Source of the DNA: Bacteroidales bacterium
GTDB taxonomy: Bacteria > Bacteroidota > Bacteroidia > Bacteroidales > CAIWKO01
Assembly: GCA_018004645.1 (NCBI GenBank)
Contig: JAGNBV010000001.1
Location: 4,665 to 68,664, forward strand
DNA length: 64,000 nucleotides
Direction: 5' to 3'
Position numbers and translations under genes: made by a program. This document shows, in pieces, positions 2,737 to 61,265 of the stretch. Below the pieces are notes generated by a model. The model was not told where the DNA came from, did no database searches, and worked only from the letters and a program-made list of their open reading frames with translations. How positions within the stretch are numbered: the first letter of the stretch is position 1; every line of letters starts with the position of its first letter.

Positions 2737-5700
2737 ATGAAAAAAAATATTTCCAAACGTATTTTTTTTGTTGCTATAATTTTTTTGGTGTTGGTCACCC
2801 TCTGTGTTTTTAATAAGGAAAAAATTCTTAGCCTTCAATCGCGAAAAGATAAAATCATAAAAAAAGTTGAAAACCAGATTCAGCGAAAAGAAAAAATCGC
2901 AACAGAAATTATCGACGGCCTTTTTGACGATGCTAAAAAAAATGTTCCTGTCGATTTGTTTTCGGACGATCACCTCCTGAAAGTTTCAAAAGAAGAGGGA
3001 ATAACTTTTTTGAAATATGAAAATGACTCCCTGGTATTTTGGTCCGATAATTTTTTGCCGGCAACGCATTTTTTAGACAACGACATCCGGGATAAAAAAC
3101 TCCTGAAAAAAGATAATGGCTGGTATTATATACTGAAAAAGGAAAAAAATAAGGAATTCTGTGCTGCCGTCATTTTAATAAAAAACGCGTATAAGTACGA
3201 AAACGATTATTTACAAAATAAATTTAATCTCGGAAATGTAACCGATATCCCAGGAGTGGAGGTTTCCGAAAAGACAGACCAGAATTTCATACAAAATACT
3301 GCCGGAGAAAGAATTTTTTCGTTGACTTTCGACGATAATTTGTCCTATACCTTTTCTCAGCAAGTGTCGATCCTGCTGCTGTATTTTCTCGCCTTTATTT
3401 GTTTATTATATTTGCTGTTTCTGATTTTCCGGTATTTTTACGAAAAGGGGAAAATCAGCAAAACACTTATGGTGCTTGGGGTGGTGTTCTCAATGATTTT
3501 GTTGCGAGGCATTCTGTTTTATCTTAAACTCCCGGCGGCGGTGTATAAAACCGAAATTTTTGGGCCTATATTTTATGCCTCTTCCTCATTGTTGCCCTCT
3601 TTTGGCGATTTGTTGATCAATGCCGTATTATTCTTTATTATCGCAGTTTTTGTCTATAAAAGCACGCCCTTTAATAAAAATTTTGTAGTTAAAACATGGC
3701 AAAAAGCCCTGGCTGTGCCAGCCATTGTGATTTTCGTTACCTTGTTATTTCTGTATATAATAAAGCTGATACAGTCCATTGTGACAGATTCTACCATTTC
3801 TTACAATCTTGACCAGTTATTTTCCATTGACGGCTTGAGTATAGCCGGCCTGATTATTATTTCACTGTTGATTTTCTCTTATTTTCTTTTTTCGGCCGTA
3901 TTGTTTAATTATTGTTTACGGCTCAAAGTGCGTGCTGTGTATATTTTAGGCCCCGCCATAATATTTGCGGTAGTAACCTGTGCGGGAAATTTTCTCCAAT
4001 TAATTGAGTGTTGGCCGGCCACCCTTTGTTTTATTCTGTTTTGTACGGTATATTTATTATTCCGTAAAAAAAACCCTTACCAAATACCTTATCTCGAGAT
4101 AATCGCGTATTTATTGATCTTCACTTTTGCCACTTATTACACACTAAATGTTACTACCAAAAGTAAGGAACTTGAAAAACGCAAATCGCTCGCACACAAA
4201 ATATCTTCAGGAGAAGATCCGCTGGCCGAAAATATGTTTAAGGATGTCAGAAAACAAATCAGCAACGATGCTGCCTTAAAAATAAAATTGGCCGCCTATC
4301 CAAAAAGCGAAAACGATATCAGGGAGTACCTTACCAAAAAGTATTTTTCGGGTTATTGGGACAAATACAAAGTACAGATAACGGTATGTAATCCAAATGA
4401 CAGCTTGTTGCTGGAAGCCATGGCTGAAAAGCAAAACTGCAAATTGTTTTTTGATAATTTAGTAAAGAATTTTGGCGAAATGTCTTCCTGCCCGTCCCTG
4501 TATCTGCTAAACTACGGTACCGGAGGTAATAATTATCTGGCAACCATGGATTTTATGATCGACTCATCGCTGTTACATTTGTTTATTGAATTAAATTCCA
4601 AATTTATTCCCAAAGGCCTGGGATACCCTGAATTACTTATTGATAAAAAACTTTTTATCAACACCGACTTGTCTAATTATTCTTATGCGAAATATTACAA
4701 AAATGATTTGATCGATGCTTATGGAAAATATTATTATTCAATGGATTATGTCATAGATAGCGCGCTTTTTGTAAACGATGTGTATGTTTTTGACTACAAA
4801 GGATACAACCATTTATGTTATAAATCCGACGATTCGTCGGTGGTATGGGTTAGCAAAAAGAACAGAAACCTGCTCGATATTGTAGCCCCTTTTTCCATAT
4901 TATTTATTTTGTTTACCATCCTTGTGTTGCTATTCTATGTATTTGATAAAATAATACCCGGACGCAAAAATATCAGCCTGAATTTCAAGAACCGTTTGCA
5001 AGTGTCCATGGTGTCTATTCTATTGATTTCCTTTATGATAATAGGCGTGTCGACATTTTATTTTATTCGTAATCTGAACGATAATAAGAATATCGACCAG
5101 CTCAACGAGAAGTCTATGTCAATACTTATCGAGATCCAGAATAAAATTGGCAATATCGAAAACCTGGACGACGAACAACTTGCTTACCTCAACAGTTTAT
5201 TGGTGAACTTTTCCAACATATTTTTTACCGATATCAATGTATTTAATGCTCAGGGCTTTCTGGCGGCCACCTCGCGCCCACAAATCTTTTCCGAAGCCCT
5301 ATTGTCCGACAGGATGAATCCAACGGCCTTTAACCTGCTCAACGGTGAAAACAAGACCACATTCATTCATAAAGAGAATATTGGCGAACTGAAGTATTAT
5401 TCTGCCTATGTGCCATTTTTCGGAATGAACAATAATGTACTGTATTACATCAATTTACCATATTTTGCAAAAGAAAGCGAATTAAACAGGGAATTATCAT
5501 CTTTTCTTTCGGCATTTATCAATATATATGTGGTATTCATTGCATTAACAATAATAATTGCCTTGATTACCGGTAGCCGGATTACCCGCCCGCTCAATGT
5601 TATTAAGGAAAAAATCAGGAATGTGAAACTTGAGAAAAAGAACGAAAAAATTGTCTGGGAACGCAACGATGAGATAGGGGGCCTGATTTCAGAATACAAC

Positions 5701-36793: not shown

Positions 36794-36842
36794 TACTCAA
36801 TATATGTTTAGTATCTTTGTTGAAAATTTAAACACAAATGTA
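36763..36842. promoter_or_regulatory. divergent early/repressor promoter region with repeated TACTCAATAT boxes
   Basis: TACTCAATAT at 36763-36772 and 36794-36803. Plus-strand TATCTTTG -7 box at 36812-36819. Minus-strand TACATTTG box (complement of 36833-36840). Confidence 0.55.
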
Positions 36843-38412: not shown

Positions 38413-40425
38413 TTGGAATACTTCAACAACATATTTTGCCTCACTATTGATGAATGGAAGGAAGCCGGACTGTCGTACGATTTATACTTAAACGACAAAA
38501 GACGTGGTTACATCAAGGTCGTCCGTACCGGAGGCAATGGCCGCAAGGCGTTGATAGAGTTCGACAGTATTGCCAAAACAGAACGCAAAAACGCCATAAT
38601 CAATAAGTACGGTGATCCACGGCAAAAAACTGCACAGGGCACCCTGCGCGACAGGATCACACCTGATGCAAAAGCCCTGGAATATTATTCCAACTTCCAG
38701 CTGACTGACGGCAGATCGCTCCCTGAAAAAAACATTAAAGAATATTGCAACAACGCTGCCGTGCTTAATGCACTGCACAATATATATACGGAGTCGAAAA
38801 CAGCCCGACGGGCATTAGGTGCCGGAGACAGCAAGCGTTTTTTTGAACGTGCTGCCGAGATCATAAGCACCCTGAGCGATGAGTTTAACCACAACCTTCC
38901 GGCAAATCACCGCCACCTGCAGCGCGTGTACAATAAATATGTTGCTGAAGGTTATTACGGGTTGATCAGCGGTAAATTCTGCAACGATAACAGCCGTAAA
39001 GTAAGTCACGAAATTGAGCAACTAATACTCAGCATCTATGCAATGGATAACAAGCCTTTTGCTTCCAGCGTGCACGAAATATACAATTCATTTGTCGTTG
39101 GTAAGGTCGATGTGGTTGACCGCAGAACCGGCGAGCTGTTCGACAGGAAAAAGTTTTTATATCCAGATGGAACTCCCATTGAGTTATCGGATTCCACGAT
39201 ATGGAACTACATCAACAACCCTAAGAACCGCGCAATAGTAGATAGAGCGAGATCAGGACAGTTTCAGTATAACAATATTCACCGCCCGCACCATCACCGG
39301 CATTCACCTTTTTACTCCTTCAGTAAGATATCAATGGATGACAGGGATCTCCCGCGCAAATTAACCGATGGTAAACGCGTGAAAGCCTATTATTCATATG
39401 ATGTGTCCAGCGGATGTGTAATTGGATATTCTCATTCCTACGATAAGGATGAAAGGTTGTTCCTGGACTGTCTGCGCAATATGTTCCGGCTCATTGAGCG
39501 CAACGGTTTCGGTATGCCGATGGAATGTGAGGTGGAACATCACCTGGTTAACAAGTTCTTTGATGATTTGGCTCTTATGTTCCCGTTCATGAGAATATGT
39601 AACCCGGGCAACTCACAGGAAAAACGTGCTGAACACTTCAATAAGGCCAAAAAGTACGGAGTTGAAAAGGGTATTCATAAAGATATCGGGCGTTGGTGGG
39701 CCAAATGCGAAGCATACCGCATTGATGTTGACAAGGTAGATAACGAATATAAGGAACGTGGTTACTCCTTTGAAAAGCTGGTTGCTGACGATATTGAATC
39801 TATAAAGCAATATAATAACCAGCTGCACCCGCGTCAGAAGGTATATCCCGGAAAAACACGATGGGAAGTACTCAAAGAAAACATGAACCCGGAACTGGCC
39901 CAGGTGAACAAAGCCATACTGTATAAAACCATTGGCAAAAAGACAACAACCACCATTGTACGTAATCAGTACTGCCAGGTACAATACGAAAAATACCAGT
40001 TGCCAAACCCGCAGGTCATAAACAGGTTGCAACCTAACAGCTACGGTGTGGATGCTTATTACCTTCCGGATGATAACGGCGTGATCAATGAGGTATATCT
40101 GTACCAGGCAGGCAATTACATCTGCAGGTGTGAAAAGATTGTAGCTTACAACGAAGCAAAAGCAGAACAGACACAGGCTGACGTTGACAATTACAAATCA
40201 CAGTCGGAGTTTGTTGCCGAATTCGATGGTATGACCAAGCACGGCAAAAAAGAGCTTGCAAAGCCAGTGATCATAAATGTGGAGCAGATGAATGTTATTG
40301 AAAGTACGGCTGCAGAAACTGTTGAAGTAGTTGAACACTCTATTAATCAACAGGATGATATAGACAACTTGCTGGATGAGTATAATCCTGATGAATATAA
40401 AAACAGAGCTTTTAAATCAATGTAA
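38413..40425 (+). CDS. Mu-like DDE transposase (MuA analogue)
   Basis: 670 aa. Position and size fit, followed by an AAA+ partner. Central RNaseH-like region (SMDDRDL...YSYDVSSG...ECEVEH). The start codon is uncertain; TTG is listed. Confidence 0.8.
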   Translation: MEYFNNIFCLTIDEWKEAGLSYDLYLNDKRRGYIKVVRTGGNGRKALIEFDSIAKTERKNAIINKYGDPRQKTAQGTLRDRITPDAKALEYYSNFQLTDGRSLPEKNIKEYCNNAAVLNALHNIYTESKTARRALGAGDSKRFFERAAEIISTLSDEFNHNLPANHRHLQRVYNKYVAEGYYGLISGKFCNDNSRKVSHEIEQLILSIYAMDNKPFASSVHEIYNSFVVGKVDVVDRRTGELFDRKKFLYPDGTPIELSDSTIWNYINNPKNRAIVDRARSGQFQYNNIHRPHHHRHSPFYSFSKISMDDRDLPRKLTDGKRVKAYYSYDVSSGCVIGYSHSYDKDERLFLDCLRNMFRLIERNGFGMPMECEVEHHLVNKFFDDLALMFPFMRICNPGNSQEKRAEHFNKAKKYGVEKGIHKDIGRWWAKCEAYRIDVDKVDNEYKERGYSFEKLVADDIESIKQYNNQLHPRQKVYPGKTRWEVLKENMNPELAQVNKAILYKTIGKKTTTTIVRNQYCQVQYEKYQLPNPQVINRLQPNSYGVDAYYLPDDNGVINEVYLYQAGNYICRCEKIVAYNEAKAEQTQADVDNYKSQSEFVAEFDGMTKHGKKELAKPVIINVEQMNVIESTAAETVEVVEHSINQQDDIDNLLDEYNPDEYKNRAFKSM

Positions 40426-40448: not shown

Positions 40449-41321
40449 ATGATTACAACAGAACTAAAAAACAAAGTATTGGCCGAGTTAAAACGAAGCC
40501 GCGAGAATTTTACCGGATCGGACGCCAAGTATGCCGTATCACTCGGTTTGAACAATGCCGTGTACAGCCGGATAAAGAACGGCGAAATTGACAAAGTGCT
40601 GAGCGAAGCCATGTGGATATCACTGGCCCGTAAGTTCAACGTGAGCCTTAAAAATGAGGCAGAATGGAAAACAGCTAACACGCCTGTATTTCAGTATATC
40701 ACCGAGCAACTTACCAGATGCCAGGACAACAGTATCAGTTGCATGTTATGCGATGCTGCCGATATAGGGAAAACCTACACAGCAAAGATTTACGTTAAAA
40801 CACACAAAAATGCGGTTTATGTTGACTGCAGCCAGACAAAATCAAAGCAAAAACTCATAAGGTTTATTGCAAAGGAATTCGGGGTGGGACATACCGGAAA
40901 GTATAACGATGTCTACGAGGATTTGGTGTTTTATCTTCGTAGCATCGCCACCCCGATAATTATACTTGATGAGGCGGGCGACCTTGATTATGCAGCTTTT
41001 TTGGAATTAAAAGCGCTATGGAATGCCAGCGAACGTGCCTGCGGATGGATGATGATGGGCGCCGAAGGACTAAAAGAGAAAGTTCGCAGGGCCATTGGCA
41101 ACAAAAAAGTAGGTTACACCGAGATTTTCAGCCGCTATGGCAACCGCTACCAGAGAATAACGCCTGAAGACCGTGAAGAGCATGATAAGTTTACCAGGCT
41201 GCAGGCCGCGCTTATTATCCAGGCTAATACCCCTGCCGGGACAAAGCTACAGGAACTTATTCATAAGACAGACGGGTCGTTACGCAGAATCTATATAGAA
41301 ATCTCAAAACGCACAGCATAA
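40449..41321 (+). CDS. MuB-like AAA+ transposition ATPase with N-terminal HTH
   Basis: Walker A DAADIGKTYTAK, Walker B IIILDEAGDL. Immediately downstream of the transposase. Confidence 0.8.
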   Translation: MITTELKNKVLAELKRSRENFTGSDAKYAVSLGLNNAVYSRIKNGEIDKVLSEAMWISLARKFNVSLKNEAEWKTANTPVFQYITEQLTRCQDNSISCMLCDAADIGKTYTAKIYVKTHKNAVYVDCSQTKSKQKLIRFIAKEFGVGHTGKYNDVYEDLVFYLRSIATPIIILDEAGDLDYAAFLELKALWNASERACGWMMMGAEGLKEKVRRAIGNKKVGYTEIFSRYGNRYQRITPEDREEHDKFTRLQAALIIQANTPAGTKLQELIHKTDGSLRRIYIEISKRTA

Positions 41322-46148: not shown

Positions 46149-46225
46149 TGCGGGGTGGTAGCAGTGGTCAGCTCGCCGGGCTCATATCCCGGAGGTCGCA
46201 GGTTCGAGTCCTGCCCCCGCAACCA
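46149..46225 (+). tRNA. phage-encoded tRNA-Met (CAU) with initiator-like body
   Basis: Hand-folded cloverleaf. Acceptor TGCGGGG/CCCCGCA. Anticodon arm CCGGG-CTCATAT-CCCGG with three G:C pairs. T arm GCAGG-TTCGAGT-CCTGC. Encoded ACCA. The D stem has only 3 bp plus a U-C mismatch. Strong resemblance to the E. coli tRNA-fMet sequence. Confidence 0.85.
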
Positions 46226-46428: not shown

Positions 46429-47229
46429 ATGTCAAAAGCAAATGAAAGTCCAGCTCCGACTAAAAACGAGCACCTGGTGTTTATCGAAAACGATAAGCCC
46501 ATGACCACATCACGGCTGATTGCCAAAACATTCAGCAAGCAACACGCCCATGTGTTGCGGGACATTCAAAATTTAAACTGTTCTGAAAAATTCACTCAAT
46601 CCAATTTTGGATTGAGTAATTACAGAGACAAATCAGGAAAGGAGAATAAAGAATACCACGTAACCAAAGATGGTTTTACCATGCTTGCCTTTGGCTACAC
46701 CGGCCCCAAAGCCATGATGTTTAAAGAGGCGTACATAGAACGCTTCAACCTGATGGAGCACGAGCTTCGCAGCAAGCAGCCCGAAACAAAGCAAATCGCT
46801 GCCCAGGCATCGCCTTACCAGGAAGAAACACTTATGACTGTTAAAATGGGGCAGTACACCAACCAGATTTATATTACCGGTGGTGTTATTTATGCCCGGC
46901 TGTCTCCTATTATGAAATATTTGGGTTACCAGAGTAACGGCGGTCAGTATATTGATAAGATAGGCAGCGACAATTGCAAACAGATATTGGTGGGCAAATG
47001 GTTTATCAATGTTGCTGCCTTCGACCGGCTTTTAAACCTGTCCAATATGAACGTGCCCAGCGCAGTTATGAGTAGCATATACCGCGATGTGTTCAATGTT
47101 GGCCGTCCGCTCGATGAGCATGTGTATCATTTTACAGCCATGCAGATGCTTGAGATATTCGAGTTAATCATGACAGCTCCTATTAATAAAGATAAGGTTA
47201 TAAACCGCCTGAGCAAGGGTAAAATATAG
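46429..47229 (+). CDS. Rha-family phage regulatory protein / antirepressor
   Basis: The N-terminal PMTTSRLIAKTFSKQHAHVLRDI...YHVTKDGFTMLAFGYTG pattern is typical of Rha. Confidence 0.75.
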   Translation: MSKANESPAPTKNEHLVFIENDKPMTTSRLIAKTFSKQHAHVLRDIQNLNCSEKFTQSNFGLSNYRDKSGKENKEYHVTKDGFTMLAFGYTGPKAMMFKEAYIERFNLMEHELRSKQPETKQIAAQASPYQEETLMTVKMGQYTNQIYITGGVIYARLSPIMKYLGYQSNGGQYIDKIGSDNCKQILVGKWFINVAAFDRLLNLSNMNVPSAVMSSIYRDVFNVGRPLDEHVYHFTAMQMLEIFELIMTAPINKDKVINRLSKGKI

Positions 47230-47510: not shown

Positions 47511-47559
47511 TTGACTTTTTTTATAAATTGTTGTATATTTGTAATAATTATTACTTTTG
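47511..47559 (+). promoter_or_regulatory. promoter of the two-gene moron
   Basis: TTGAC at 47511, a 20-nt spacer, then TATATTTG at 47534-47541. A second TACTTTTG at 47552-47559. Confidence 0.55.
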
Positions 47560-48331: not shown

Positions 48332-49516
48332 TTATGGGCTGGAGGCAGCTAACTGGTCGCCTGTACTTTCCACGGTTGCCACATTTCTGAGGCGTACCGC
48401 CAGCGGGTCGGAGCTGTTAGATAGTTCTGCGAGGAAACCTGCAGCGGACATCACCTCGCATGTGCCCACAGTGTTATCAACGGGAACCCCTTTTATCGTT
48501 GCCGACGCCGGAGGAACATGGCAGGTACCTGTTAACTCAGTTGATGGCCCAAAGTTTACACCACTTCTGACATCTGATGTTGGCGGATTGCCAAGAGGTG
48601 ATACGTCAGCAGTATATATATTTTTTTCTACACCTAACTCATCTTTGAATTTCCATGTCGTTGAACCACTGCTTAATAAACACATACGATAAGCATAGAT
48701 AGCCATTGTGGTAGATTTGTTTTCTGCTATCCCTTTAAAATAAATACAACCTCCTCCCGAAGATGCTTGATATATTACAGGTACTTGACTTGCAGGTGGT
48801 GTCTGCATAACCAGTATTCCATTATAGTATATATTATTTGTACCCGTACTGTATATTGCTGGCATTACAGTTGATGACGTTGCAATACCGGTGCTTATAA
48901 ATGAACCTGTTCCGCGTACAGATACAGCTTCACAATTTGCAGATGATAGATTGCCTGTATGTATATAATTTCCAGTGCCCAAAATTACAAGCCCCAATGA
49001 ATTATATTGACTACCAATAGCGGGACCATATCCACCGGATTGAATTATATTACCTGAATGTATGATATTTCCGCCTGTTGTACTATTATAATATATGGCG
49101 TATGAACCATATGCTCCATTATTTATAGTGTTTCCAGTGATATAAACATCACAATTACCTGTGATTGCAAGACATGTTGTTCCGGTTACTTCCCAGTTCC
49201 GGATATCTCCTATGATAATTATAGTTTCAGGACTACTTGCAGTAATCTTAAATGCACCATAGGATGCATACGGTGTTCCTGAATAAAAACCAGTTAGCGT
49301 GGCGACATAAGTACTTGTTGGAAATGTAAATGTACCGCCTACGGTGCCACTACCTCTATTTGTTGTCCTTAATGATTTAATAGACCAGTTTTCCAAATCA
49401 ACAACCATATCTTTGCCGTCAGCATAAACATCATCGTCTATACCAGGGACAAGTCCTGTATTCCATTTTGCACCGTCCGATACATTGCCGGATGCTATTG
49501 CCCATACTGTCGCCAT
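48332..49516 (-). CDS. tail fibre / receptor-binding protein, beta-helix-like repeats
   Basis: 394 aa, G/T/S/N-rich, with repeated xGNxIxxG units. Downstream of a collagen-like fibre gene. Confidence 0.55.
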   Translation of the reverse strand: MATVWAIASGNVSDGAKWNTGLVPGIDDDVYADGKDMVVDLENWSIKSLRTTNRGSGTVGGTFTFPTSTYVATLTGFYSGTPYASYGAFKITASSPETIIIIGDIRNWEVTGTTCLAITGNCDVYITGNTINNGAYGSYAIYYNSTTGGNIIHSGNIIQSGGYGPAIGSQYNSLGLVILGTGNYIHTGNLSSANCEAVSVRGTGSFISTGIATSSTVMPAIYSTGTNNIYYNGILVMQTPPASQVPVIYQASSGGGCIYFKGIAENKSTTMAIYAYRMCLLSSGSTTWKFKDELGVEKNIYTADVSPLGNPPTSDVRSGVNFGPSTELTGTCHVPPASATIKGVPVDNTVGTCEVMSAAGFLAELSNSSDPLAVRLRNVATVESTGDQLAASSP

Positions 49517-49518
49517 GA

Positions 49519-49695
49519 TTATTTACTATTTTCGGTTATAAAATCCTGCTGATATTTGAGCGCATCGGCCAAACTTAGATTAATCTTTTTAAATTCTTTT
49601 GTTTCAGTTTTAGCGCCTTCTTTTTCAATCCAAGAGTCGATAATGAGCACATAGCTGTCTCCAATCGCATTGATAATTATTGAATACTTTCTCAT
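49519..49695 (-). CDS. hypothetical 58-aa protein, possible fibre assembly factor
   Basis: Fills the gap between the fibre genes, with its start 2 nt after the upstream stop. Not in the ORF track. Confidence 0.4.
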   Translation of the reverse strand: MRKYSIIINAIGDSYVLIIDSWIEKEGAKTETKEFKKINLSLADALKYQQDFITENSK

Positions 49696-49696
49696 C

Positions 49697-50047
49697 TTAT
49701 GTATAATTTATGGTTTGTCTTTCTGTCCATCTTACATTATTGGCATGTTTGGTTTCTGTGGTACCGTTGAGGAATACCTCTATACGGGTAATCTTCCAGG
49801 CGGCGGCGCTTTCCGGAGTCCCCAATATAGCCACCCCACAATAACTGTATGGAGCCACCCATAGATGCCGCTTTTCGTAGGTTATGGCATCCTGTCCCGG
49901 CTGTCCTGGCGCCCCCGGTTCTCCCTGGGGGCCTGCAGGGCCGGGTTTCCCATCGTATACATTTACCGTTACCGTTTCAGCGCTCTCGGTAATGTTCACC
50001 GCAACATTTTGCGGCTGTGCGGTTATTTCGATAATTACATTGTCCAT
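49697..50047 (-). CDS. collagen-repeat tail fibre protein
   Basis: GKPGPAGPQGEPGAPGQPGQ G-X-Y run. Confidence 0.6.
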   Translation of the reverse strand: MDNVIIEITAQPQNVAVNITESAETVTVNVYDGKPGPAGPQGEPGAPGQPGQDAITYEKRHLWVAPYSYCGVAILGTPESAAAWKITRIEVFLNGTTETKHANNVRWTERQTINYT

Positions 50048-50054
50048 AGCCTTA

Positions 50055-50399
50055 TTAATGTGTTACATCCTGGGTAATCTGCCACTTGCCCGCCACATAG
50101 GTTTTGATATCTCCGTTAGCCAGTGTGATCTCAATATCATACCAATATAAGGCTGCAGGAAAATCAATGATCTGCTTTTTGATCTGAAATTCTCCGTTGA
50201 CAGCATCGGTTATTGCGATATGGCCTTCGTCAGTAGAAAGTTCATGTGCTACCGGATGCAGGGGTGCCAGACGGAGATGCATCCGGATAGATGCCCCTGT
50301 CAGGGTTAACGGTTCTTCATTGACTGATACCGTGAAGGTGAGCGCTTCAAAGGTATCGCCTTTTACGTGAGGATTAAAGTTATAAATAGCTTGTTCCAT
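50055..50399 (-). CDS. hypothetical structural protein
   Basis: 114-aa ORF tightly packed in the structural operon. Confidence 0.45.
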   Translation of the reverse strand: MEQAIYNFNPHVKGDTFEALTFTVSVNEEPLTLTGASIRMHLRLAPLHPVAHELSTDEGHIAITDAVNGEFQIKKQIIDFPAALYWYDIEITLANGDIKTYVAGKWQITQDVTH

Positions 50400-50401
50400 T
50401 A

Positions 50402-50902
50402 TTATGGGATATTAATTACTGGTGTTGTATTTGTTAAAGGTGTTTGTGAGGTAACTGCCGACCGGTCAACAATCAGCGTCTTATATTCTTCAATGGTGTC
50501 CACTATGCCTTCGTGATTATGGTTAACTGTGCTCGATAGTCTCATGAAGCCATTTGAGGCGCTTGTGGCATTGCTTTGCATTGCGGCAAACAATTTATCT
50601 GGCAGATCAAGATAGTCCAGGGCTTCGCTTTGTAATGGGCTATATTCGGCTGTTTGTGCAAACCATTTAGTGACTATATGCAGGCGTATAACAATCTCTG
50701 CCTGCTGAACCTTGTTTCCGAGTGTTTGCCACTGGTGAGGCATAAATTCAACAAATACGGCAGGAAAGTTAAACGGCGATTCTGCCTCAATGAAATTAAC
50801 CTGCTGGTTCCACAGATCGAAGTGCTGCAGCAACTGCATACCGCTATCATCTTTGATGGCTTTGAGTTTATCTTGTATGTCTAAGTACAACTGCTTCCTC
50901 AT
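50402..50902 (-). CDS. hypothetical structural protein (neck/adaptor position)
   Basis: 166-aa ORF overlapping the gpG-like gene. Confidence 0.45.
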   Translation of the reverse strand: MRKQLYLDIQDKLKAIKDDSGMQLLQHFDLWNQQVNFIEAESPFNFPAVFVEFMPHQWQTLGNKVQQAEIVIRLHIVTKWFAQTAEYSPLQSEALDYLDLPDKLFAAMQSNATSASNGFMRLSSTVNHNHEGIVDTIEEYKTLIVDRSAVTSQTPLTNTTPVINIP

Positions 50903-51387
50903 TTGTTGAATATTAAATTGATTTTTGTATTGATGATGTCCATTATTTTATCGTTCAGCTCTTCGCTGTCGCCAATAAATTGCCGTTTGGGCATAGTAAA
51001 ACCTTTGCCTCGTCCTGCTTTTAACCCGAAGTTGTGAACGGCAGCATAGATCAGATCGCTGTGTATTGTTACTTTACCGTTTTCCGGAGTATATTGGATG
51101 GATCTTCCCAGGTCGCCGGTTTTTCCGGTTAATATTTTTCTGGTGAATGATGCCGGTTGTCTTGTAAGCAACTGCCCCTTTTTACCTTTTTTTCCTGATT
51201 CGGCCATGCGCCTTTTTACTTCGGGCCATGGGTCGCGTTCCCACCCTTCATTCTTAAAATTCAGTTTGAAATGTTTCACCGCCTCCCTACCGATGATCCG
51301 GGGCAGGTCATACGCTATCAGCCTGCTTATTTCAGCAGAATGCTGTTGTATTTTGGCTGCGAATTGTTCCGGTGTGAGGGTGAGCAT
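50899..51387 (-). CDS. phage virion morphogenesis protein (Mu gpG-like)
   Basis: ILTGKTGDLGRSI...YAAVHNFG...MPKRQFIG pattern, directly after the MuF gene. Confidence 0.65.
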   Translation of the reverse strand: MLTLTPEQFAAKIQQHSAEISRLIAYDLPRIIGREAVKHFKLNFKNEGWERDPWPEVKRRMAESGKKGKKGQLLTRQPASFTRKILTGKTGDLGRSIQYTPENGKVTIHSDLIYAAVHNFGLKAGRGKGFTMPKRQFIGDSEELNDKIMDIINTKINLIFNK

Positions 51388-51501
51388 AAATTTATTTTGT
51401 TAAATACTTGATTTTGCTATGTTTATTTTTGTATCTTTGTATTGAGATTTTGAATGTAAGCCGAGGCGGAGTATGGATTCGCTACTACGCATTTCAAAAT
51501 C

Positions 51502-52668
51502 TCATTTTTTTATCCATTTATCAATATCATCAGGTACTCCTTCTTTTACTTTTTTCATATCAATTGTATTAATTATCGCATAGGGAACTTCTGAAAGATA
51601 TTCCTTATGAATAGCAACATTTGCATATTTTTCTACTTTACCAATTGTAACTTTATAATAAAAGAAATATGCTGCTTCACGGTGTTTTTCTTCGGCATCA
51701 GCCCAACCAATGTATTCCCAATTTTTAATACTGCTTTCTAAAAATAATGCCTGAGATTGAATTTTGATAATATAATTATGTCTTGCGATTTGCCTAATGG
51801 AATTTTTAATAATAGTCATTTTTCCAGTTTTGATATTATCTGATTCTACTGGTAACCCTTTTAATGACAATGACTCACGATATGTGCTTAATAATGGTTC
51901 CAAATGGTTTTTAAAAACAAAATGTTCAATTTCTTTCAGATTATTAACTTTTCTTATATACGGATGAGCATCAGTAATCAACTCCCCGGTCATTGCCGGA
52001 TTTCCATCCAGCCCGGTGGCGGGTTTTACTTCCTTCTTAGGAATGCCAGTGGCTTCTTTATCGGTTGGCTGCCAATCGCATTTGCAGTTCCACAGGTTTC
52101 CCGGCTGATTCTCATTCCAGAATGGGTCATTTATAGGCCTGATGGTTCCCACCATGGCCAGATGTTCCTCCCTGGGATTGGCCGATCTGGTCATGATCCA
52201 CTCCATATTCGGATACAGGTCGGCATCCTGCTTAAAGTCTATAAACTGTTTAGCGCTCCTGGCACGCGCAACAATAGCATTGTATTCGGTTGCCTGGTAA
52301 CGGTTGAAGTTTTTTAATACCTGCATGGCGTTTTTATCAAAATCCTTTTCAGGTAGACCCTTCAGAATTCCTGTTACCTTGTAACTTTTATATGCTGCTA
52401 AACGAGCTGTATTCAGTTTAAACTTTTCATTAAGATCAAAATACCTGCTGCCCGTTTCAGGTTCGCCAAACATGGCCAGCCCCTTATGATAATTGTCTTT
52501 ATAGAGTTCAAACAGTTTGGGATGTATGCTGTCATCATAACCGGACTTGATATCTGCCATCACTTCCCTGAAAGTGTCCGAAGCTCTGTTGGTGAAACTG
52601 ACAAGCGGAAAATTGGCTATATGGCAGGCCAGCAGATCAGCATCCTGGGTCTGGTATAGTTTATCCAA
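51502..52668 (-). CDS. MuF-like head morphogenesis protein with C-terminal extension
   Basis: The MuF/SPP1 gp7 core ends at ...NPREEHLAMVGTIRPINDPFW...NLWNCKCDW (~aa 200). A further ~150-190 aa follow. Confidence 0.8.
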   Translation of the reverse strand: MDKLYQTQDADLLACHIANFPLVSFTNRASDTFREVMADIKSGYDDSIHPKLFELYKDNYHKGLAMFGEPETGSRYFDLNEKFKLNTARLAAYKSYKVTGILKGLPEKDFDKNAMQVLKNFNRYQATEYNAIVARARSAKQFIDFKQDADLYPNMEWIMTRSANPREEHLAMVGTIRPINDPFWNENQPGNLWNCKCDWQPTDKEATGIPKKEVKPATGLDGNPAMTGELITDAHPYIRKVNNLKEIEHFVFKNHLEPLLSTYRESLSLKGLPVESDNIKTGKMTIIKNSIRQIARHNYIIKIQSQALFLESSIKNWEYIGWADAEEKHREAAYFFYYKVTIGKVEKYANVAIHKEYLSEVPYAIINTIDMKKVKEGVPDDIDKWIKK

Positions 52669-52691
52669 TTGCCTGCCCCCGTTCCAGGGGC

Positions 52692-53981
52692 TTATACGAA
52701 AAAATCCTTTATCCTTCGTACAATAGTATTAGATGGTTTGTTTGGGTCATTTAAAGGATGTTGGATAGCAGTTTCAATAGCATTTAAAGCGTCGTCATCC
52801 ATTTTTGTGCGCAGCGCTTCGTAGTTTTCTGGTTTTGGAATATCAAACTCCTCGTATATATAATCATCGGCCACAGGAACCTTATTTGACACTTCGTTTA
52901 TCACACTCCATTTTTTCTGGAGTTTGTCCCAGTCTTTTTCAGGCGACTTGTACCATATTTCACCACCGGAAACATTGAACCCGAATACTTTCAGTATGGC
53001 TTTAAACTTTCCGTTGAGCAAGTCGATGATGAATTTCTCGTCCGATTTGTTTTTACTGTCTTCAGCCTCCTGGTGTACATCGCCCAGTGCCCTGGCGCCT
53101 TTATCTCCCTGCTCTGTTGTCAGTGTGTTTCCAAGCATTATCTTTGAGATCTCAGCGTTGCATGCTGCATACAGGTCTTTGTATAAAGAAGAGCTGCCGG
53201 AGCTGTCGGAATTAGGGTGTATCTTAAATTCAGCGCCCTTTGGCAATATGGCATATGATGCGCCCCCGTACACTTCCATGGCCCGTTCAAGTGCAACACG
53301 GGTTTTGTCATCATAATCGTCGTAACGCCCTTCGCGGAAGGGCATGCCAAACATTTCTGCAAACTGTGCCCAGTCGCCGAAATCACCGCGCTTATAAATA
53401 ACATATTGTGCAGATTTTACCAGCAGCCCCATGTCTTTGGGATCGCCGGACCACATCAGGTATCTGCTTAGCGGCGGTTCTTTAAATAAGATGTCTTTAG
53501 AGGCAAACGATTGTTCTTTGCTTATACATTCAAAGTTCCGTTCAGGGTGCACATGTTTGCGCGGTATAAGGTCAAAATCTATAGAATACTGTTCCTCATC
53601 CGCATTATAGGTAATGCCGTTGATCTGCACGAGGGTAAATCCCCAGGCGATAGCATTGTGAAGTTCTTTGAGTAACAACCGCATGGAAGGACAATTAAGC
53701 AATTTGTTCAGTTCGGTATCCTCTTTACCATCACGGACAAATAACAGATCCTTATTCAGTATCATGTCCTGGCGTTTTCCCCAGGTTGCTTCTATCTGAC
53801 CGTCGAGGATGATATCATCATAAAGGTCGTAGAGCAACACGCGTGACGGGTTGTATATGTTTTCAAATTGGCTGATAGCATTTTTCCAGTTAGCAATATC
53901 CTGGGTTTTCCTGTTGACAGGTCTGATCGTGATATTCTGAATCACGATATCTTTTTTTGCGTTTGCTTCAAATCTTTTCAT
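52692..53981 (-). CDS. portal protein (Mu gp29 / DUF935-like)
   Basis: 429 aa, between the terminase and MuF. Confidence 0.75.
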   Translation of the reverse strand: MKRFEANAKKDIVIQNITIRPVNRKTQDIANWKNAISQFENIYNPSRVLLYDLYDDIILDGQIEATWGKRQDMILNKDLLFVRDGKEDTELNKLLNCPSMRLLLKELHNAIAWGFTLVQINGITYNADEEQYSIDFDLIPRKHVHPERNFECISKEQSFASKDILFKEPPLSRYLMWSGDPKDMGLLVKSAQYVIYKRGDFGDWAQFAEMFGMPFREGRYDDYDDKTRVALERAMEVYGGASYAILPKGAEFKIHPNSDSSGSSSLYKDLYAACNAEISKIMLGNTLTTEQGDKGARALGDVHQEAEDSKNKSDEKFIIDLLNGKFKAILKVFGFNVSGGEIWYKSPEKDWDKLQKKWSVINEVSNKVPVADDYIYEEFDIPKPENYEALRTKMDDDALNAIETAIQHPLNDPNKPSNTIVRRIKDFFV

Positions 53982-54403
53982 TAGTAAGAGTTATTGCGTT
54001 TGGTATTTCCGCCGAATGTCAGGTAATTGCTTCCGGAGGTGTTGGAAGCATCCGACAGTCGGGTAAGGCCGTCTAATTGTGCCCTTTCTGCCTGTACATC
54101 CTTCAGAAAACTGATAGTATCTTTATATTTCTGCGCCCTGCTTTCAGGCATGTTTACCGGGTTGCTGATGTTATAGCAGTTATATAAGGCTATATCACGT
54201 ACCATTTTCACCACAAGCACATTACGGCTGCTTCCGCTTTTATTCCATTCGGCCTGCATATTGTAGCGGACGCCCAGGTATGAGTTTACTTCTGCTATGG
54301 CTTCGCTTATGGCATTGCTTATGTTATCCGGGTTACTGCGTGTCAGAACGTTAAGTATTTCGGGATATAAGCCTTTTTCCAGATCGGTTTGGTCTAAATA
54401 CAT
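53981..54403 (-). CDS. DUF1320 (Mu gp36)-like head-tail connector protein
   Basis: MYLDQTDLEKGLYPEIL...AIAEVNSYLGVRYN...DIALYNCY pattern. Confidence 0.55.
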   Translation of the reverse strand: MYLDQTDLEKGLYPEILNVLTRSNPDNISNAISEAIAEVNSYLGVRYNMQAEWNKSGSSRNVLVVKMVRDIALYNCYNISNPVNMPESRAQKYKDTISFLKDVQAERAQLDGLTRLSDASNTSGSNYLTFGGNTKRNNSY

Positions 54404-54410
54404 GTGATTA

Positions 54411-54647
54411 TTATTTGGTGAAATAAATACATATCTTTTGCAGTTCGTTGGCTTCCCTGAGCCGTTTATGAAGCACGCCGTCGTTGATCAGAAAATTTAT
54501 ATGGCTGCGGTCATATACACGGATTTTGTTGAAAATCTTTATTACGTAATGCCTTTTGCCTGTAAGGTCGTGCAGCTTGTTTGCAGTTTTTATGGCAGAT
54601 TTAATCCTGTAATAGTTCCATATTCTTTTAAATAATGTTGTTTCCAT
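54411..54647 (-). CDS. hypothetical 78-aa protein
   Basis: ORF packed between terL and the gp36-like gene. Confidence 0.4.
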   Translation of the reverse strand: METTLFKRIWNYYRIKSAIKTANKLHDLTGKRHYVIKIFNKIRVYDRSHINFLINDGVLHKRLREANELQKICIYFTK

Positions 54648-54649
54648 GT

Positions 54650-56176
54650 TTAAACTCTTTTTTTATTAATTGGCTTCCTGCCAAAATGAATATCCCCGAT
54701 GCTTATCTGAAGGTTTTTTGTATTGGCAATCCATACCCCTCCCTCCACGCAGTCGGGTCCATCTGCAGGGGCGTTCAGTTTCGGGTTGATCAGGAGGAAC
54801 TGCTCCGACAGCCGATCCATGTGCGGATTGCCTTTTTCCTTCTCATTTAATATAAGTCGTCCCTGCCGGTTAATCGGTTCCAGGTTGCCTTCTATACGGC
54901 TGAATTTATCCGGTTTAATGCGTCCATCGGGGGCAATTGAAAGATAATACCCGTTTTTCTTACCGGCCTCAACAAACAGCGGAATAAAAACCTGCTGATA
55001 AAACGGATCCTGCAGTTTGTTGTTTTCGGTAAAGTAATACACCTGTGTTTTACCCGCCACATATTTGTCTAGGTAATAGTACCAGTCAACATATTCAGCA
55101 TTGGTTACATGATCGAGATATCCGGTAATGACATAAAATATACCGTCGATCATCCCGATAAGGAAATTGGCTTTGTAAGAGTTGGCTTTGTTTTTACTAT
55201 TGCTTGGGGCAGGGTCACCATAGCTGATCAGAAACCTGAATTTATGTAATGGCGGTATCTGTCCCCAGTGCAGTTCTTTAAAGGTGTCACCTACCGACAG
55301 TGGATTGTTATAATACTCCTGCTGGGCAGACATAGTGCTTATCTTACTCAGCAGCCTGTCTATTTGCTCTTCGGAGTTTTTTTGCGGCCACGAACTTTTA
55401 CCGTTTTTATCACGTATGTTTACAATATCCCAATTGTCGGACAGTTTACCGGCTCTTACGGTTCCACAGTCTTTGGCGATAATATTGCCACACCATATGA
55501 TAAGTGCAGGTTCCGAAATGGAGCGGGTGGGATACAGCGCCTGTTCAAACCATTTCCATCGGTAATCAATCACATCAGGGTTGCGACAATCCTCGTCAGT
55601 ATCGTAATCATCCACCACTATCAGGTCGGGCCTTACATCCTCGTTTTTGGTACCTCTGGGGCTTTGTCCGGCTCCCAGCGCCCTGAAGGCTGCCCCTGAT
55701 TTCGTCTTAAATTCACCCATCTCCCAGTGGCCATATTCCACCTGGTTGCCATAATAAGCCCTTATTAACGAATTGCTGTCGAGATTAGCGCGGTAAGGTT
55801 CCAGCAGGCGTTCAGCATTATCGTAACTCGAGCTGCAGAAAATAACATTTTTCTTTTTACCGGTAAGTACCAGGTAAAGGACTACCATCATCACCACGGT
55901 GGTTTTGCCTAATTCACGCGACCAGCTCAGTACCTCATACCATTCTTTATTCTGGATCATCCGTCTGATTGCTTTTTTGTGAAATGGGGCAAATTCCGCT
56001 TTGGCATATTTGCGAAAAAAATGATACATCCACTTAACAGGATCCGCTTCAAGTTCCAGACGATGTTTAAGGATCTCTGCAGCCGACATACTGTCTTCAA
56101 TAATGGTGTCGCAAAGGAGCGATTTACGGTATTCGTCCCAATAATTGATGAATTCTCTTGTGGATTTGTTTACCAT
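54650..56176 (-). CDS. terminase large subunit
   Basis: 508 aa. Walker A-like SRELGKTTV, Walker B LIVVDDYD, and a C-terminal nuclease-like half. Confidence 0.85.
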   Translation of the reverse strand: MVNKSTREFINYWDEYRKSLLCDTIIEDSMSAAEILKHRLELEADPVKWMYHFFRKYAKAEFAPFHKKAIRRMIQNKEWYEVLSWSRELGKTTVVMMVVLYLVLTGKKKNVIFCSSSYDNAERLLEPYRANLDSNSLIRAYYGNQVEYGHWEMGEFKTKSGAAFRALGAGQSPRGTKNEDVRPDLIVVDDYDTDEDCRNPDVIDYRWKWFEQALYPTRSISEPALIIWCGNIIAKDCGTVRAGKLSDNWDIVNIRDKNGKSSWPQKNSEEQIDRLLSKISTMSAQQEYYNNPLSVGDTFKELHWGQIPPLHKFRFLISYGDPAPSNSKNKANSYKANFLIGMIDGIFYVITGYLDHVTNAEYVDWYYYLDKYVAGKTQVYYFTENNKLQDPFYQQVFIPLFVEAGKKNGYYLSIAPDGRIKPDKFSRIEGNLEPINRQGRLILNEKEKGNPHMDRLSEQFLLINPKLNAPADGPDCVEGGVWIANTKNLQISIGDIHFGRKPINKKRV

Positions 56177-56607
56177 TATTTGAGGTTGTCTTTTATGAAA
56201 GCGTCAAACAAGCCCGATAGTTCTTTTGCTTTTGCAAGATCAAGGAGGCGCAGCCAGTTTAAAAATCGCACCGATACACTTATAATATCAGCCAGCGAAC
56301 TTTCACGTTCCATCTTGTCGATGGCGCTGGCCAGTTTGTTTATAGAATCAGCCTCGGCTGGTGTGGCATATTTCTGATCTCGTTCCGAAATGGTTTTATT
56401 GATCTCGGCAATTTGCATGTACAGGCGTTGTAATTGCTGTTCGCGGGTTACTGTAAGACTTGCCTTTTGTTCCTCCCACTTGCCTTTCTTAACCCATTTG
56501 TTTACAGTGACTTTGCTAACGCCGACCTTTTCAGCTATCTCTATCTGTGAAAGGTTTTCGAGTGTAAACAATAACTTGGCCCATTCCTCTTTTTCCTTGA
56601 TCTTCAT
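56176..56607 (-). CDS. terminase small subunit (HTH)
   Basis: N-terminal HTH LSQIEIAEKVGVSKVTVNKWV. ATGA overlap with terL. TATTTTTG box (complement of 56629-56636). Confidence 0.6.
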   Translation of the reverse strand: MKIKEKEEWAKLLFTLENLSQIEIAEKVGVSKVTVNKWVKKGKWEEQKASLTVTREQQLQRLYMQIAEINKTISERDQKYATPAEADSINKLASAIDKMERESSLADIISVSVRFLNWLRLLDLAKAKELSGLFDAFIKDNLK

Positions 56608-58687: not shown

Positions 58688-59794
58688 ATGAAAACAAGCA
58701 AACTTATTTTTAGCGTCCTGGTGGCTTTATTGTTCGCTACCGGTATCGGATCAGTATTTGGCATAGGAGCAGGAGCAGCAGCTCTGGGCGCCTCTGCATT
58801 CATCAAAGCTCCAAAAGGTGCTACTTTAATGGCAGTTACGCCTGAAATATGGACTAACTACATTGTAGAAAACCTATTTAAGGATAATGAATTTCTCCTG
58901 GAATCCATTGACGAGAGTCAGTATGTGATCGGGACTGGAGTTGTCCACATTCCGCAGGCAGGTAGTCCTTCAGGTGTACAGCGTAATCGTAAAACGTTAC
59001 CGGCCACTATAACGAGACGTAAAGATATCGATGTTACTTACGTACTGGATGAGTTTACTACAGATCCCCGTTTCATCCCCAATATTGATAAAGCTGAATT
59101 GTCATACGATAAGATGGACAGCTGTATGAATGAGGATATGATGTACCTGAAACAGTTTATAGCTGAAGCGATGTTATACAACTGGAGGCCTGCATATTTC
59201 ATTAAAACTTCCGGTTCTTCCGTATCACCGCACGTGGGAACTTCAAACCGTAAAGCTATCTGCATCGAAGACTTTATCGTAGCAAAAGAGACCTTTAATA
59301 AATGGGGTATTCCGAAGGCCGACCGCAGATGTATTATAGATACAACCATGAAAGGACAGTTGGTGCGGGAACTTAAAGCCAACAGTAACAGAGATTATTC
59401 TGTCATTTACAATCCCGTTACCGGGGAAATTGATATGCTCGAAGGGTTTAAAATCTATGAACGATCCACCGCGCTGGTAGCCTCAGCTCCCACGTTAACA
59501 GCCGTATCGGGTACTGATTATTTCAGATGGACTTCGACTGACCTTACCTATACCCCTGAACAGCTTGAGGATATAGAAGCCGGAACCAGCAATTATGCCA
59601 CTACCGCCTCGGCGATAGCCTTATTCTGGCACAAAGGCATGGTGGCCCGTGCGTTAGGTGCTACCCAGATGTTCGACGATCAGGGTAACCCGCAATACTA
59701 TGGTGATATATACAGCTTCCTACAACGTGCCGGAGGTAGGACGCGCAGGGGCGATTCAAAGGGTGTGCTCGGTATTATCCAGGTAACAGCATAA
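58688..59794 (+). CDS. major capsid protein candidate
   Basis: Position after the protease/scaffold, 368 aa. Alternative start at 58829 (MAVTPEIW...). Confidence 0.6.
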   Translation: MKTSKLIFSVLVALLFATGIGSVFGIGAGAAALGASAFIKAPKGATLMAVTPEIWTNYIVENLFKDNEFLLESIDESQYVIGTGVVHIPQAGSPSGVQRNRKTLPATITRRKDIDVTYVLDEFTTDPRFIPNIDKAELSYDKMDSCMNEDMMYLKQFIAEAMLYNWRPAYFIKTSGSSVSPHVGTSNRKAICIEDFIVAKETFNKWGIPKADRRCIIDTTMKGQLVRELKANSNRDYSVIYNPVTGEIDMLEGFKIYERSTALVASAPTLTAVSGTDYFRWTSTDLTYTPEQLEDIEAGTSNYATTASAIALFWHKGMVARALGATQMFDDQGNPQYYGDIYSFLQRAGGRTRRGDSKGVLGIIQVTA

Positions 59795-61113: not shown

Positions 61114-61265
61114 AGGCCGTATTCGATGGCTTTCCGGGCGTTGATTATGTCTGGTACGACGATAAAGAAGTTTATTTCAACGAGCGTGAAAACTGCACCC
61201 GGATAACCCGTAAAGAGTTTTTTGAATCAAAAAAATCAAAATCTAAAAACATAGAAAATGAATAA
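61098..61265 (+). CDS. hypothetical 55-aa protein
   Basis: ORF bridges the spanin end and the sheath start, with overlapping stop and start. Not in the ORF track. Confidence 0.3.
   Translation: MEKKIKAVFDGFPGVDYVWYDDKEVYFNERENCTRITRKEFFESKKSKSKNIENE

Follow-up and report, generated by a model that had tools for sequence, protein, structure and literature searches.

A horizontally exchanged C-terminal cassette in the MuF head-protein gene of a Mu-like Bacteroidales prophage encodes a candidate capsid-delivered effector with remote similarity to LPD3

The minor head protein of the MuF family encoded by a Mu-like prophage of Bacteroidales ends in an exchangeable module. The last ~150 codons of its gene, together with ~57 nt of 3' untranslated DNA, form an AT-rich cassette that is exchanged horizontally; in near-identical phages it is swapped for unrelated modules at a fixed junction after the tripeptide HPY. 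The domain that it encodes (the ‘tail’) appears to be a compact α+β domain, a remote relative of the polyvalent-protein domain LPD3 and a divergent subfamily that the Pfam model of LPD3 misses. By analogy with other phage head proteins, we take the tail to be a probable capsid-delivered effector, possibly enzymatic, rather than part of a classical toxin–immunity pair, and we put the probability of this explanation (cassette, LPD3 relationship and delivery together) at roughly 60%. Throughout, ‘the window’ is the whole stretch of DNA that was analysed, 64,000 nucleotides long, and positions are those of the window unless another locus is named.

By its gene content, the right-hand ~26 kb of the window (38413-64000) is a Mu-like transposable prophage. 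It carries a Mu-type transposase, a transposition protein and a Rha/anti-repressor-like regulator, as a temperate phage does, and its late genes lie in two divergent blocks. The minus-strand block (48332-56607) holds the terminase, portal, MuF, gpG-like and fibre-like genes; the plus-strand block, from 56807, holds the protease, major head protein, endolysin-like and tail sheath genes. Genes for terminase, gp36-like protein, Portal_Mu, MuF and gpG-like protein succeed one another in the order of a packaging module, which is identical in relatives, and the gpG-like gene comes after MuF in all of them. The features needed below are these:

38413-40425: Mu-type transposase (A-like)
40449-41321: transposition protein (B-like)
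46429-47229: Rha/anti-repressor-like regulator
50899-51387, minus strand: gene for a Phage_tail_S/Mu gpG-like virion morphogenesis protein, 162 aa (PF05069, E 5.5e-12; phrog_26)
51388-51444, minus strand: the half of the gap next to the gpG-like gene, upstream of it; conserved, aligning with all relatives
51443-51504, minus strand: predicted stem-loop (-20 kcal/mol; z -2.87 against shuffles) whose 12-bp lower stem starts from the stop-codon U
51445-51501, minus strand: untranslated 3' end of the cassette, which makes up the first half of the 114-nt gap; differs among tail types
51502-52668, minus strand: MuF-family minor head protein gene, 388 aa, TTG start (from the ORF list, Pfam and TIGR01641 matches, and homologues)
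51505-51957, minus strand: coding part of the cassette, aa 238-388; no DNA similarity to the collinear loci L001 and L002
51958-52014, minus strand: conserved junction motif G219-Y237 (GLDGNPAMTGELITDAHPY), the last conserved stretch ahead of the variable tail
52075-52374, minus strand: Phage_Mu_F core, aa 99-198 (PF04233, E 4.6e-9; 37.5 bits against a cut-off of 29.6 bits)
52692-53981, minus strand: Mu-type portal protein gene, 429 aa, upstream of MuF (PF06074 Portal_Mu, E 1.5e-66)
54650-56176, minus strand: terminase
from 56807, plus strand: head protease
at 58688, plus strand: major head protein
at 61258, plus strand: tail sheath

The prophage also contains a tRNA-Met gene (46149-46225). 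Past the gpG-like gene, in the block 48332-50047, are genes for a 116-aa protein that contains a brief collagen-like Gly-X-Y run (49697-50047, minus strand) and for a 394-aa Gly/Thr/Ser-rich protein without a family match (48332-49516, minus strand). The counterpart of the latter diverges in the relative L003, which suggests that it is a variable fibre or receptor-binding gene.

The MuF gene is real, since 260 homologues of its product were found at E<=1e-3, one of them an identical protein from a Bacteroidales MAG, and since dN/dS against a relative is about 0.06-0.1. Its TGA stop codon occupies 51502-51504 on the minus strand. The TTG start lies 23 nt past the portal stop; the exact start is uncertain, and gene callers picked one ~11 codons downstream in relatives. 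The Pfam Phage_Mu_F match scores above its gathering cut-off and ends at NLWNCKCDW, near residue 200, just where an initial annotation of the window had placed the end of the core; the ORF coordinates, peptides and gap length given there are likewise all correct. The match to TIGR01641 (SPP1_gp7), at 25.6 bits, is under the cut-off of that model. An AlphaFold model of the full-length protein is confident (pLDDT 90.4, pTM 0.85), with an ordered linker and low confidence only in aa 1-24.

The MuF backbone does not stop at residue 200; it is conserved as far as Y237. The C-terminal extension proposed initially is therefore variable over ~150 aa, as was said, and does not start near residue 200, which would make it 188 aa long. 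The consensus of the junction, GL[DE]GNPxxTGE[LIV][IF][TS][DE]xHPY, matches, as a regular expression, 43 of the 120 closest homologues. These matches span six tail clusters (OURS, LPD3, B, D, E and F), and G219, L220, G222, P224 and Y237 are invariant in alignment A4. Beyond it, many close homologues align with the query only to about aa 240-257 (BLAST, the 120 best of 260 homologues). P0005 and P0006, for example, are 87% identical to it over aa 12-243 and 82% over aa 12-244, respectively, and show no similarity thereafter. When the tails of the 120 homologues were clustered, at least eight unrelated types were found past the junction, in clusters of 57 (the LPD3 type), 17, 13 (the window's own type), 12, 8 and 4, plus smaller groups. 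Tail type does not follow the rest of the protein: of 116 proteins, 69 have as their closest neighbour in N-terminal sequence a protein with a tail of a different type, and some such pairs are 96-98% identical in their N-terminal parts. Such polymorphism of the C-terminal region among close homologues is one of the properties by which MuF polymorphic toxins are defined.

The junction is equally sharp in DNA, as seen in syntenic contigs retrieved for several relatives (L001-L007 among them). Against L001, the window is collinear (85%) from 56607 to 51958, without similarity from 51957 to 51445, and collinear again from 51444. Against L002, the unmatched segment is 51442-51947, with breakpoints at 51948 and 51441, and against L004, which has the same tail type, the window is collinear throughout. 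L004 and L001 provide the closest comparison: they are 99.6% identical over 4689 nt, ending 2-3 codons after HPY, are unrelated for the next 506 nt, and then resume at 92.9% identity, the 3' boundary of the cassette falling at position 5229 of L004. The interval flagged initially, 51502-51951, comprises codons K240-K388 plus the stop and matches the similarity-free segment to within 3-7 nt. Base composition, too, sets the cassette apart. Its GC content is 27.6-29%, against 43-46% in the flanking genes, and the coding part alone has 27.6%, against 45.7% in the N-terminal part of the gene; relatives with other tails have the same contrast between cassette and flanks. The earlier suggestion that the C-terminus is a swapped module is thus upheld at the level of both protein and DNA, and colinear conservation across this phage group clearly does not occur.

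The 114-nt gap between MuF and the gpG-like gene (51388-51501) had been called unusual. It exists, and it is not unusual: whichever of the examined tail types a relative has, a gap of 102-168 nt lies ahead of its gpG-like gene, and the gap belongs to the conserved features of the locus rather than being an anomaly. It contains no conserved ORF; a 30-codon frame at 51492-51400 was considered as an immunity gene and rejected, being frameshifted in L004, the relative with the same tail type. An immunity gene had been envisaged in the gap or among the neighbouring genes, and the search for one came up empty. No immunity ORF follows MuF here or in any relative with this tail type, and the next gene, where MuF polymorphic toxin loci would have a small ORF (<150 aa), is the gpG-like gene, which is not an immunity gene. 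Within ~4 kb either side of the cassette, nothing else co-varies with tail type (window, L001, L002 and L004), and tblastn detected no orphan cassettes in the window. Among relatives, only L007 has an extra ORF in the gap: 90 aa long (4236-4508), it lies between a MuF gene with a canonical LPD3 tail and the gpG-like gene, downstream of the ACAAAGATACAA motif described below, and has no homologue in the window (tblastn).

Two small elements occur in the gap. Stem-loops that overlap, or lie just after, the MuF stop codon are present in most other cassette types (L001, L002, L005, L006 and L007), with a perfect stem of 15 bp in L005 and a stem of 12 bp in L002. The corresponding structure is weak in L004, and so the stem-loop is a frequent, non-obligatory feature of these cassettes rather than a conserved element; it might act as a terminator, might stabilise the RNA or might be no more than a by-product of recombination. 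The second element, the 12-nt sequence ACAAAGATACAA (51429-51440, minus strand), marks where similarity resumes after every cassette type. The motif ACAAAGATACRA is found in six loci (L001-L004, L006 and L007), five times exactly as ACAAAGATACAA and in L006 as ACAAAGATACGA; its positions include 5267-5278 in L001, 5241-5252 in L002, 5236-5247 in L004, 1894-1905 in L006 and 4209-4220 in L007. Near copies occur elsewhere in the window, at 36809-36820 and 47531-47542 (both minus strand). The -7 box of Bacteroides promoters is TAnnTTTG, and the reverse complement of ACAAAGATACAA holds TATCTTTG, which fits this box on the opposite strand, pointing into the 3' end of MuF. A scan of the gap for sigma-70 promoters and terminators was uninformative for a Bacteroidales genome.

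What, then, is the tail? It had been proposed to be a toxin or nuclease module, and this has not been sustained: the tail matches no toxin or nuclease family, and is instead a remote relative of LPD3. Residues 210-388 have no Pfam match at E<=10, residues 241-388 have no NCBIfam match at E<=0.1, and a single-protein search of PDB sequences gave nothing for the tail at E<=1. The only PDB match of the A2 profile, 9okb, was rejected as a chance similarity (E 0.097). Even the Pfam LPD3 model (PF18798) fails to match the tail at E<=10, and fails likewise with the close homologues P0002 and P0008. The relationship emerges from profiles: a profile of 13 tails of the window's type aligns with one of LPD3-type tails with a probability of 96.3% (hhalign, E 1.6e-9, 123 columns). 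By the same method, the tail is unrelated to cassette types B, D, E and F (probability <=1.4%) and to the C-terminal domain of Mu F itself (0.25%). BLAST with P0021 (LPD3 domain at aa 266-369) also aligns through query residue 369.

Proteins with this kind of tail are few. When 1.84 billion representatives were searched exhaustively with the tail profile, no more than 113 proteins came up at E<=1e-3, and a second, word-indexed homologue search returned three and added little. The domain is always C-terminal, in host proteins of 300-470 aa, of about 800 aa, or in short ones that are possibly fragments. Among 84 profile matches that were scanned, 48 also match Phage_Mu_F, 14 the Pfam LPD3 model and 3 Portal_Mu; since these three bear both tail and portal, portal–MuF–cargo fusions probably exist, presumably among the ~800-aa proteins. 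Four proteins of 780-843 aa (P0126, P0134, P0137 and P0139) have the same tail subfamily at their C-terminus. All ten tail loci found in species-representative genomes are from Bacteroidales MAGs.

The predicted structure points in the same direction as the profiles. An AlphaFold model of the tail, made from an alignment of the window's tail type plus LPD3 tails, is of high confidence (pLDDT 95.7, pTM 0.89) and has its elements in the order α-β-β-α-α-β-β-β-β. Its top fold matches in BFVD, a library of predicted viral structures, so that predictions stand on both sides of the comparison, are proteins named LPD3 and large polyvalent proteins (Foldseek probability 0.99-1.0, TMq 0.45-0.57). Neither the tail nor the full-length model has a match in the PDB at E<=0.001. 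The highest-ranking entries are NTF2-like and designed proteins, with TM 0.2-0.3. For the tail, the best E is 0.18, and neither RelE (2khe, E 1.1) nor a CDI entry (7m5f_C, TM 0.42/0.50) gives a significant match. On these model comparisons, a link to the BECR RNase fold (Barnase, EndoU, colicin E5/D and RelE; PBECR) is unproven.

The tail domain is, by its sequence divergence, old, diverse and constrained by purifying selection: between the window and L004 it is 57% identical (the N-terminal part, 88%), with saturated synonymous sites (dS) and dN/dS of about 0.06. Across 73 non-redundant members of the subfamily, with overall identities of 25-57%, eleven polar or aromatic positions are kept in at least 78%. 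These are R/K288, S290, H297, K328, H329, N350 and E360, and the tyrosines Y319, Y337, Y338 and Y363; at position 288 the window has lysine and most members arginine. The tail had been described as rich in His, Lys and Tyr, which is so only mildly (3.4, 12.8 and 6.1%, against 2.1, 8.8 and 4.6% in the N-terminal part). The conserved set of residues hints, speculatively, at an enzyme, perhaps one that acts on nucleic acids or nucleotides. Only one tyrosine is conserved at >=90% across the subfamily and canonical LPD3 together, so an active site shared by the two is not evident. LPD3 itself goes back to Iyer et al. (PMC5512222), who defined 40 polyvalent-protein domains whose function was elusive, LPD3 among them, and left it off their list of potentially enzymatic LPDs; no functional work on LPD3 since then was found in the literature.

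The other tails that occupy the slot are a mixed company. One matches CdiA_C above the Pfam cut-off. Types B and F resemble the CdiA_C-type cluster E only marginally (probability 66-71%), and we therefore refrain from calling all of the alternative tails toxins. Between the CdiA_C-tailed MuF gene of L005 (3001-4404) and the gpG-like gene that comes next lies a gap of 153 nt, with no plausible immunity ORF; this is unusual, given that 89% of described MuF toxin genes have a small downstream ORF. Distantly related is the MuF of Bacteroides phage p00 (BK010646.1; L008 2417-3856), a 479-aa ‘Mu F-like’ protein that ends in a Gln_amidase domain (PF15644, papain-fold toxin 1; E 1.1e-9, above cut-off). 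Among the phage-database matches listed for the query, 20 of 20 end at aa 238-239, at the junction motif. In L010 (3122-4238), next to a MuF gene with the same tail type, the gpG-like gene is partly duplicated in tandem, a chimeric copy of 163 aa preceding a complete one of 154 aa; either an artefact of assembly or a scar left by recombination could account for this.

MuF proteins such as SPP1 gp7 and Mu F lie within the head, at the portal. Domains fused to their C-termini have been proposed to be effectors that enter the host with the DNA (PMC5512222, PMC5576092); for this reason we read the tail as a capsid-delivered effector. Packaging and delivery are inferred from MuF, SPP1 gp7 and the phage polyvalent proteins. 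Through its MuF part the protein would sit at the portal within the capsid; its cargo domain would then exit together with the DNA and act early in the newly infected Bacteroidales cell; and the rapid turnover of cassettes would reflect an arms race with functions of the host or of rival elements. Several points count against the effector reading: the elusive function of LPD3 and its absence from the list of potentially enzymatic LPDs, the single tyrosine shared with canonical LPD3, the lack of a significant match to any nuclease or toxin fold, and the high pTM (0.85) and ordered linker of the full-length model, according to which the tail could pack onto MuF as a single structural unit.

That model also speaks for a purely structural role, in which the tail would be a head or assembly domain that contacts portal, DNA or scaffold and does nothing in the infected cell. 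MuF proteins are, after all, head components, the domain arrangement is predicted to be fixed, and there is neither an immunity gene nor a match to a catalytic family. Yet unrelated tails, of different fold families, occur in phages that are 96-99.6% identical in portal, terminase and the N-terminal part of MuF, and a conserved structural contact is therefore hard to credit. The foreign base composition of the cassette, the presence of the same domain family in giant polyvalent proteins, and the lack of any relation to the C-terminal domain of Mu F further diminish this explanation, which we think very unlikely. The tail might otherwise be a classical MuF polymorphic toxin, growth-inhibiting and aimed at competing bacteria, with its cognate immunity encoded elsewhere in the prophage. 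Architecture and cassette polymorphism are those of polymorphic toxins, CdiA_C is among the sister cassettes, and the phage, which has transposase A and B genes, is a temperate, Mu-like one, as has been reported for MuF toxins (PMC5576092). Nevertheless, the tail belongs to no toxin family, no ORF follows the gene save the 30-codon frame that is broken in L004, the gpG-like gene comes directly next in all relatives, even past the CdiA_C tail, and no gene within about 4 kb either side tracks the tail type. We regard such a toxin as improbable, although somewhat less so than a structural domain.

The remaining alternatives also have the tail injected. It could be a non-enzymatic inhibitor that binds a defence or regulatory protein of the host, in the manner of anti-restriction or anti-CRISPR proteins. 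Delivery at the earliest stage of infection, when defences act, would suit this role, as would fast turnover without immunity genes, which is in keeping with an arms race against defences; many anti-defence modules are brought together in polyvalent proteins (PMC5512222), and some canonical LPD3 members do without the conserved histidine. The fixed set of His, Lys, Glu, Asn and Ser residues kept in 78-90% of the 73 members is, however, more typical of an active site, and we consider a pure inhibitor unlikely, if a little less so than a toxin. More ambitiously, the LPD3-like tail might found an uncharacterised enzyme family that lacks a solved structure, perhaps metal-independent and nuclease-like, that works through His297, His329 and Glu360 and is injected without an immunity protein, and the MuF 3' end from HPY to ACAAAGATACAA might be a dedicated, hyper-recombining effector slot that tracks host defences. 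This elaborate proposal is doubtful as a whole, albeit the least so of the alternatives. The broader reading, an effector delivered from the capsid whose chemistry is left as merely possible, is the one we favour.

Temperate phages have been proposed to use cargo domains borne by MuF to bring proteins into new hosts. Only a few such domains have been tested, and the toxin examples described come largely from Firmicutes. The present locus displays the logic of MuF and cargo in Mu-like prophages of Bacteroidales, a major group of the gut and of digesters. It departs from the toxin–immunity model in two ways: no immunity gene is present, even beside a CdiA_C tail, and the cargo is an uncharacterised member of the LPD3 superfamily, with a fold that is confidently predicted and has no solved counterpart. 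Overall, this is a known phage strategy, well supported, and the new points are modest. They are an unrecognised LPD3 subfamily that is, judging from its sequences, confined to Bacteroidales; cassette boundaries that are unusually clean, with 99.6% identical flanks, fixed junctions and foreign base composition; and the absence of immunity genes across the whole slot in the relatives examined. With a small, clearly delimited domain of 148 aa and near-isogenic cassette variants that occur naturally, the system is suitable for experiments on the action of effectors that phages inject.

Among known systems, the locus most resembles the MuF polymorphic toxins (Jamet et al. 2017, PMC5576092; Apk2 toxins, PMC12226406). 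It shares with them an N-terminal MuF domain and a C-terminal module that varies and is exchanged among close relatives, and in both the gene belongs to a temperate phage and comes right behind that for the portal; delivery coupled to DNA has been proposed for them. Unlike theirs, the tail here is not a recognised toxin domain and has no small immunity ORF: the locus has the architecture of a MuF polymorphic toxin and lacks both a known toxin domain and an adjacent immunity gene. To the polyvalent proteins and LPD3 (PF18798; Iyer et al. 2017, PMC5512222), the tail is related remotely, by profiles, bridging sequences and predicted fold, and the simplest of the architectures described for them consists of MuF and a single effector domain. 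The tail differs from LPD3 in its own polar set (K328-H329, N350 and E360) and an extra C-terminal segment of about 25 aa, and the MuF protein differs from polyvalent proteins in having two domains only, and no processing peptidase.

CdiA-CT and Rhs-type cassettes are organised similarly, with a conserved peptide motif (here ...GNPxxTGE..xHPY) preceding unrelated AT-rich modules that are swapped by recombination, and one alternative tail of the MuF slot matches CdiA_C. The cassette here differs from them in having neither an immunity gene nor orphan cassettes in the window, and the delivery proposed is by capsid rather than by secretion system. SPP1 gp7, from a Bacillus phage, and Mu gpF have homologous MuF cores and the same position after the portal gene. 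SPP1 gp7 is a portal-bound, low-copy internal head protein; unlike the MuF of the window, it lacks a cargo domain. The C-terminal domain of Mu F (MuF_C, a weak match) is unrelated to the tail, and the gene of Mu F overlaps gene G, without a gap. Last, T4 Alt and other capsid-packaged, injected enzymes have no relation to the tail in sequence or fold, and targeting differs, being by MuF fusion here; but for them, as for the tail, the proposal is that the protein is carried in the head and acts in the new host with no need of an immunity protein.
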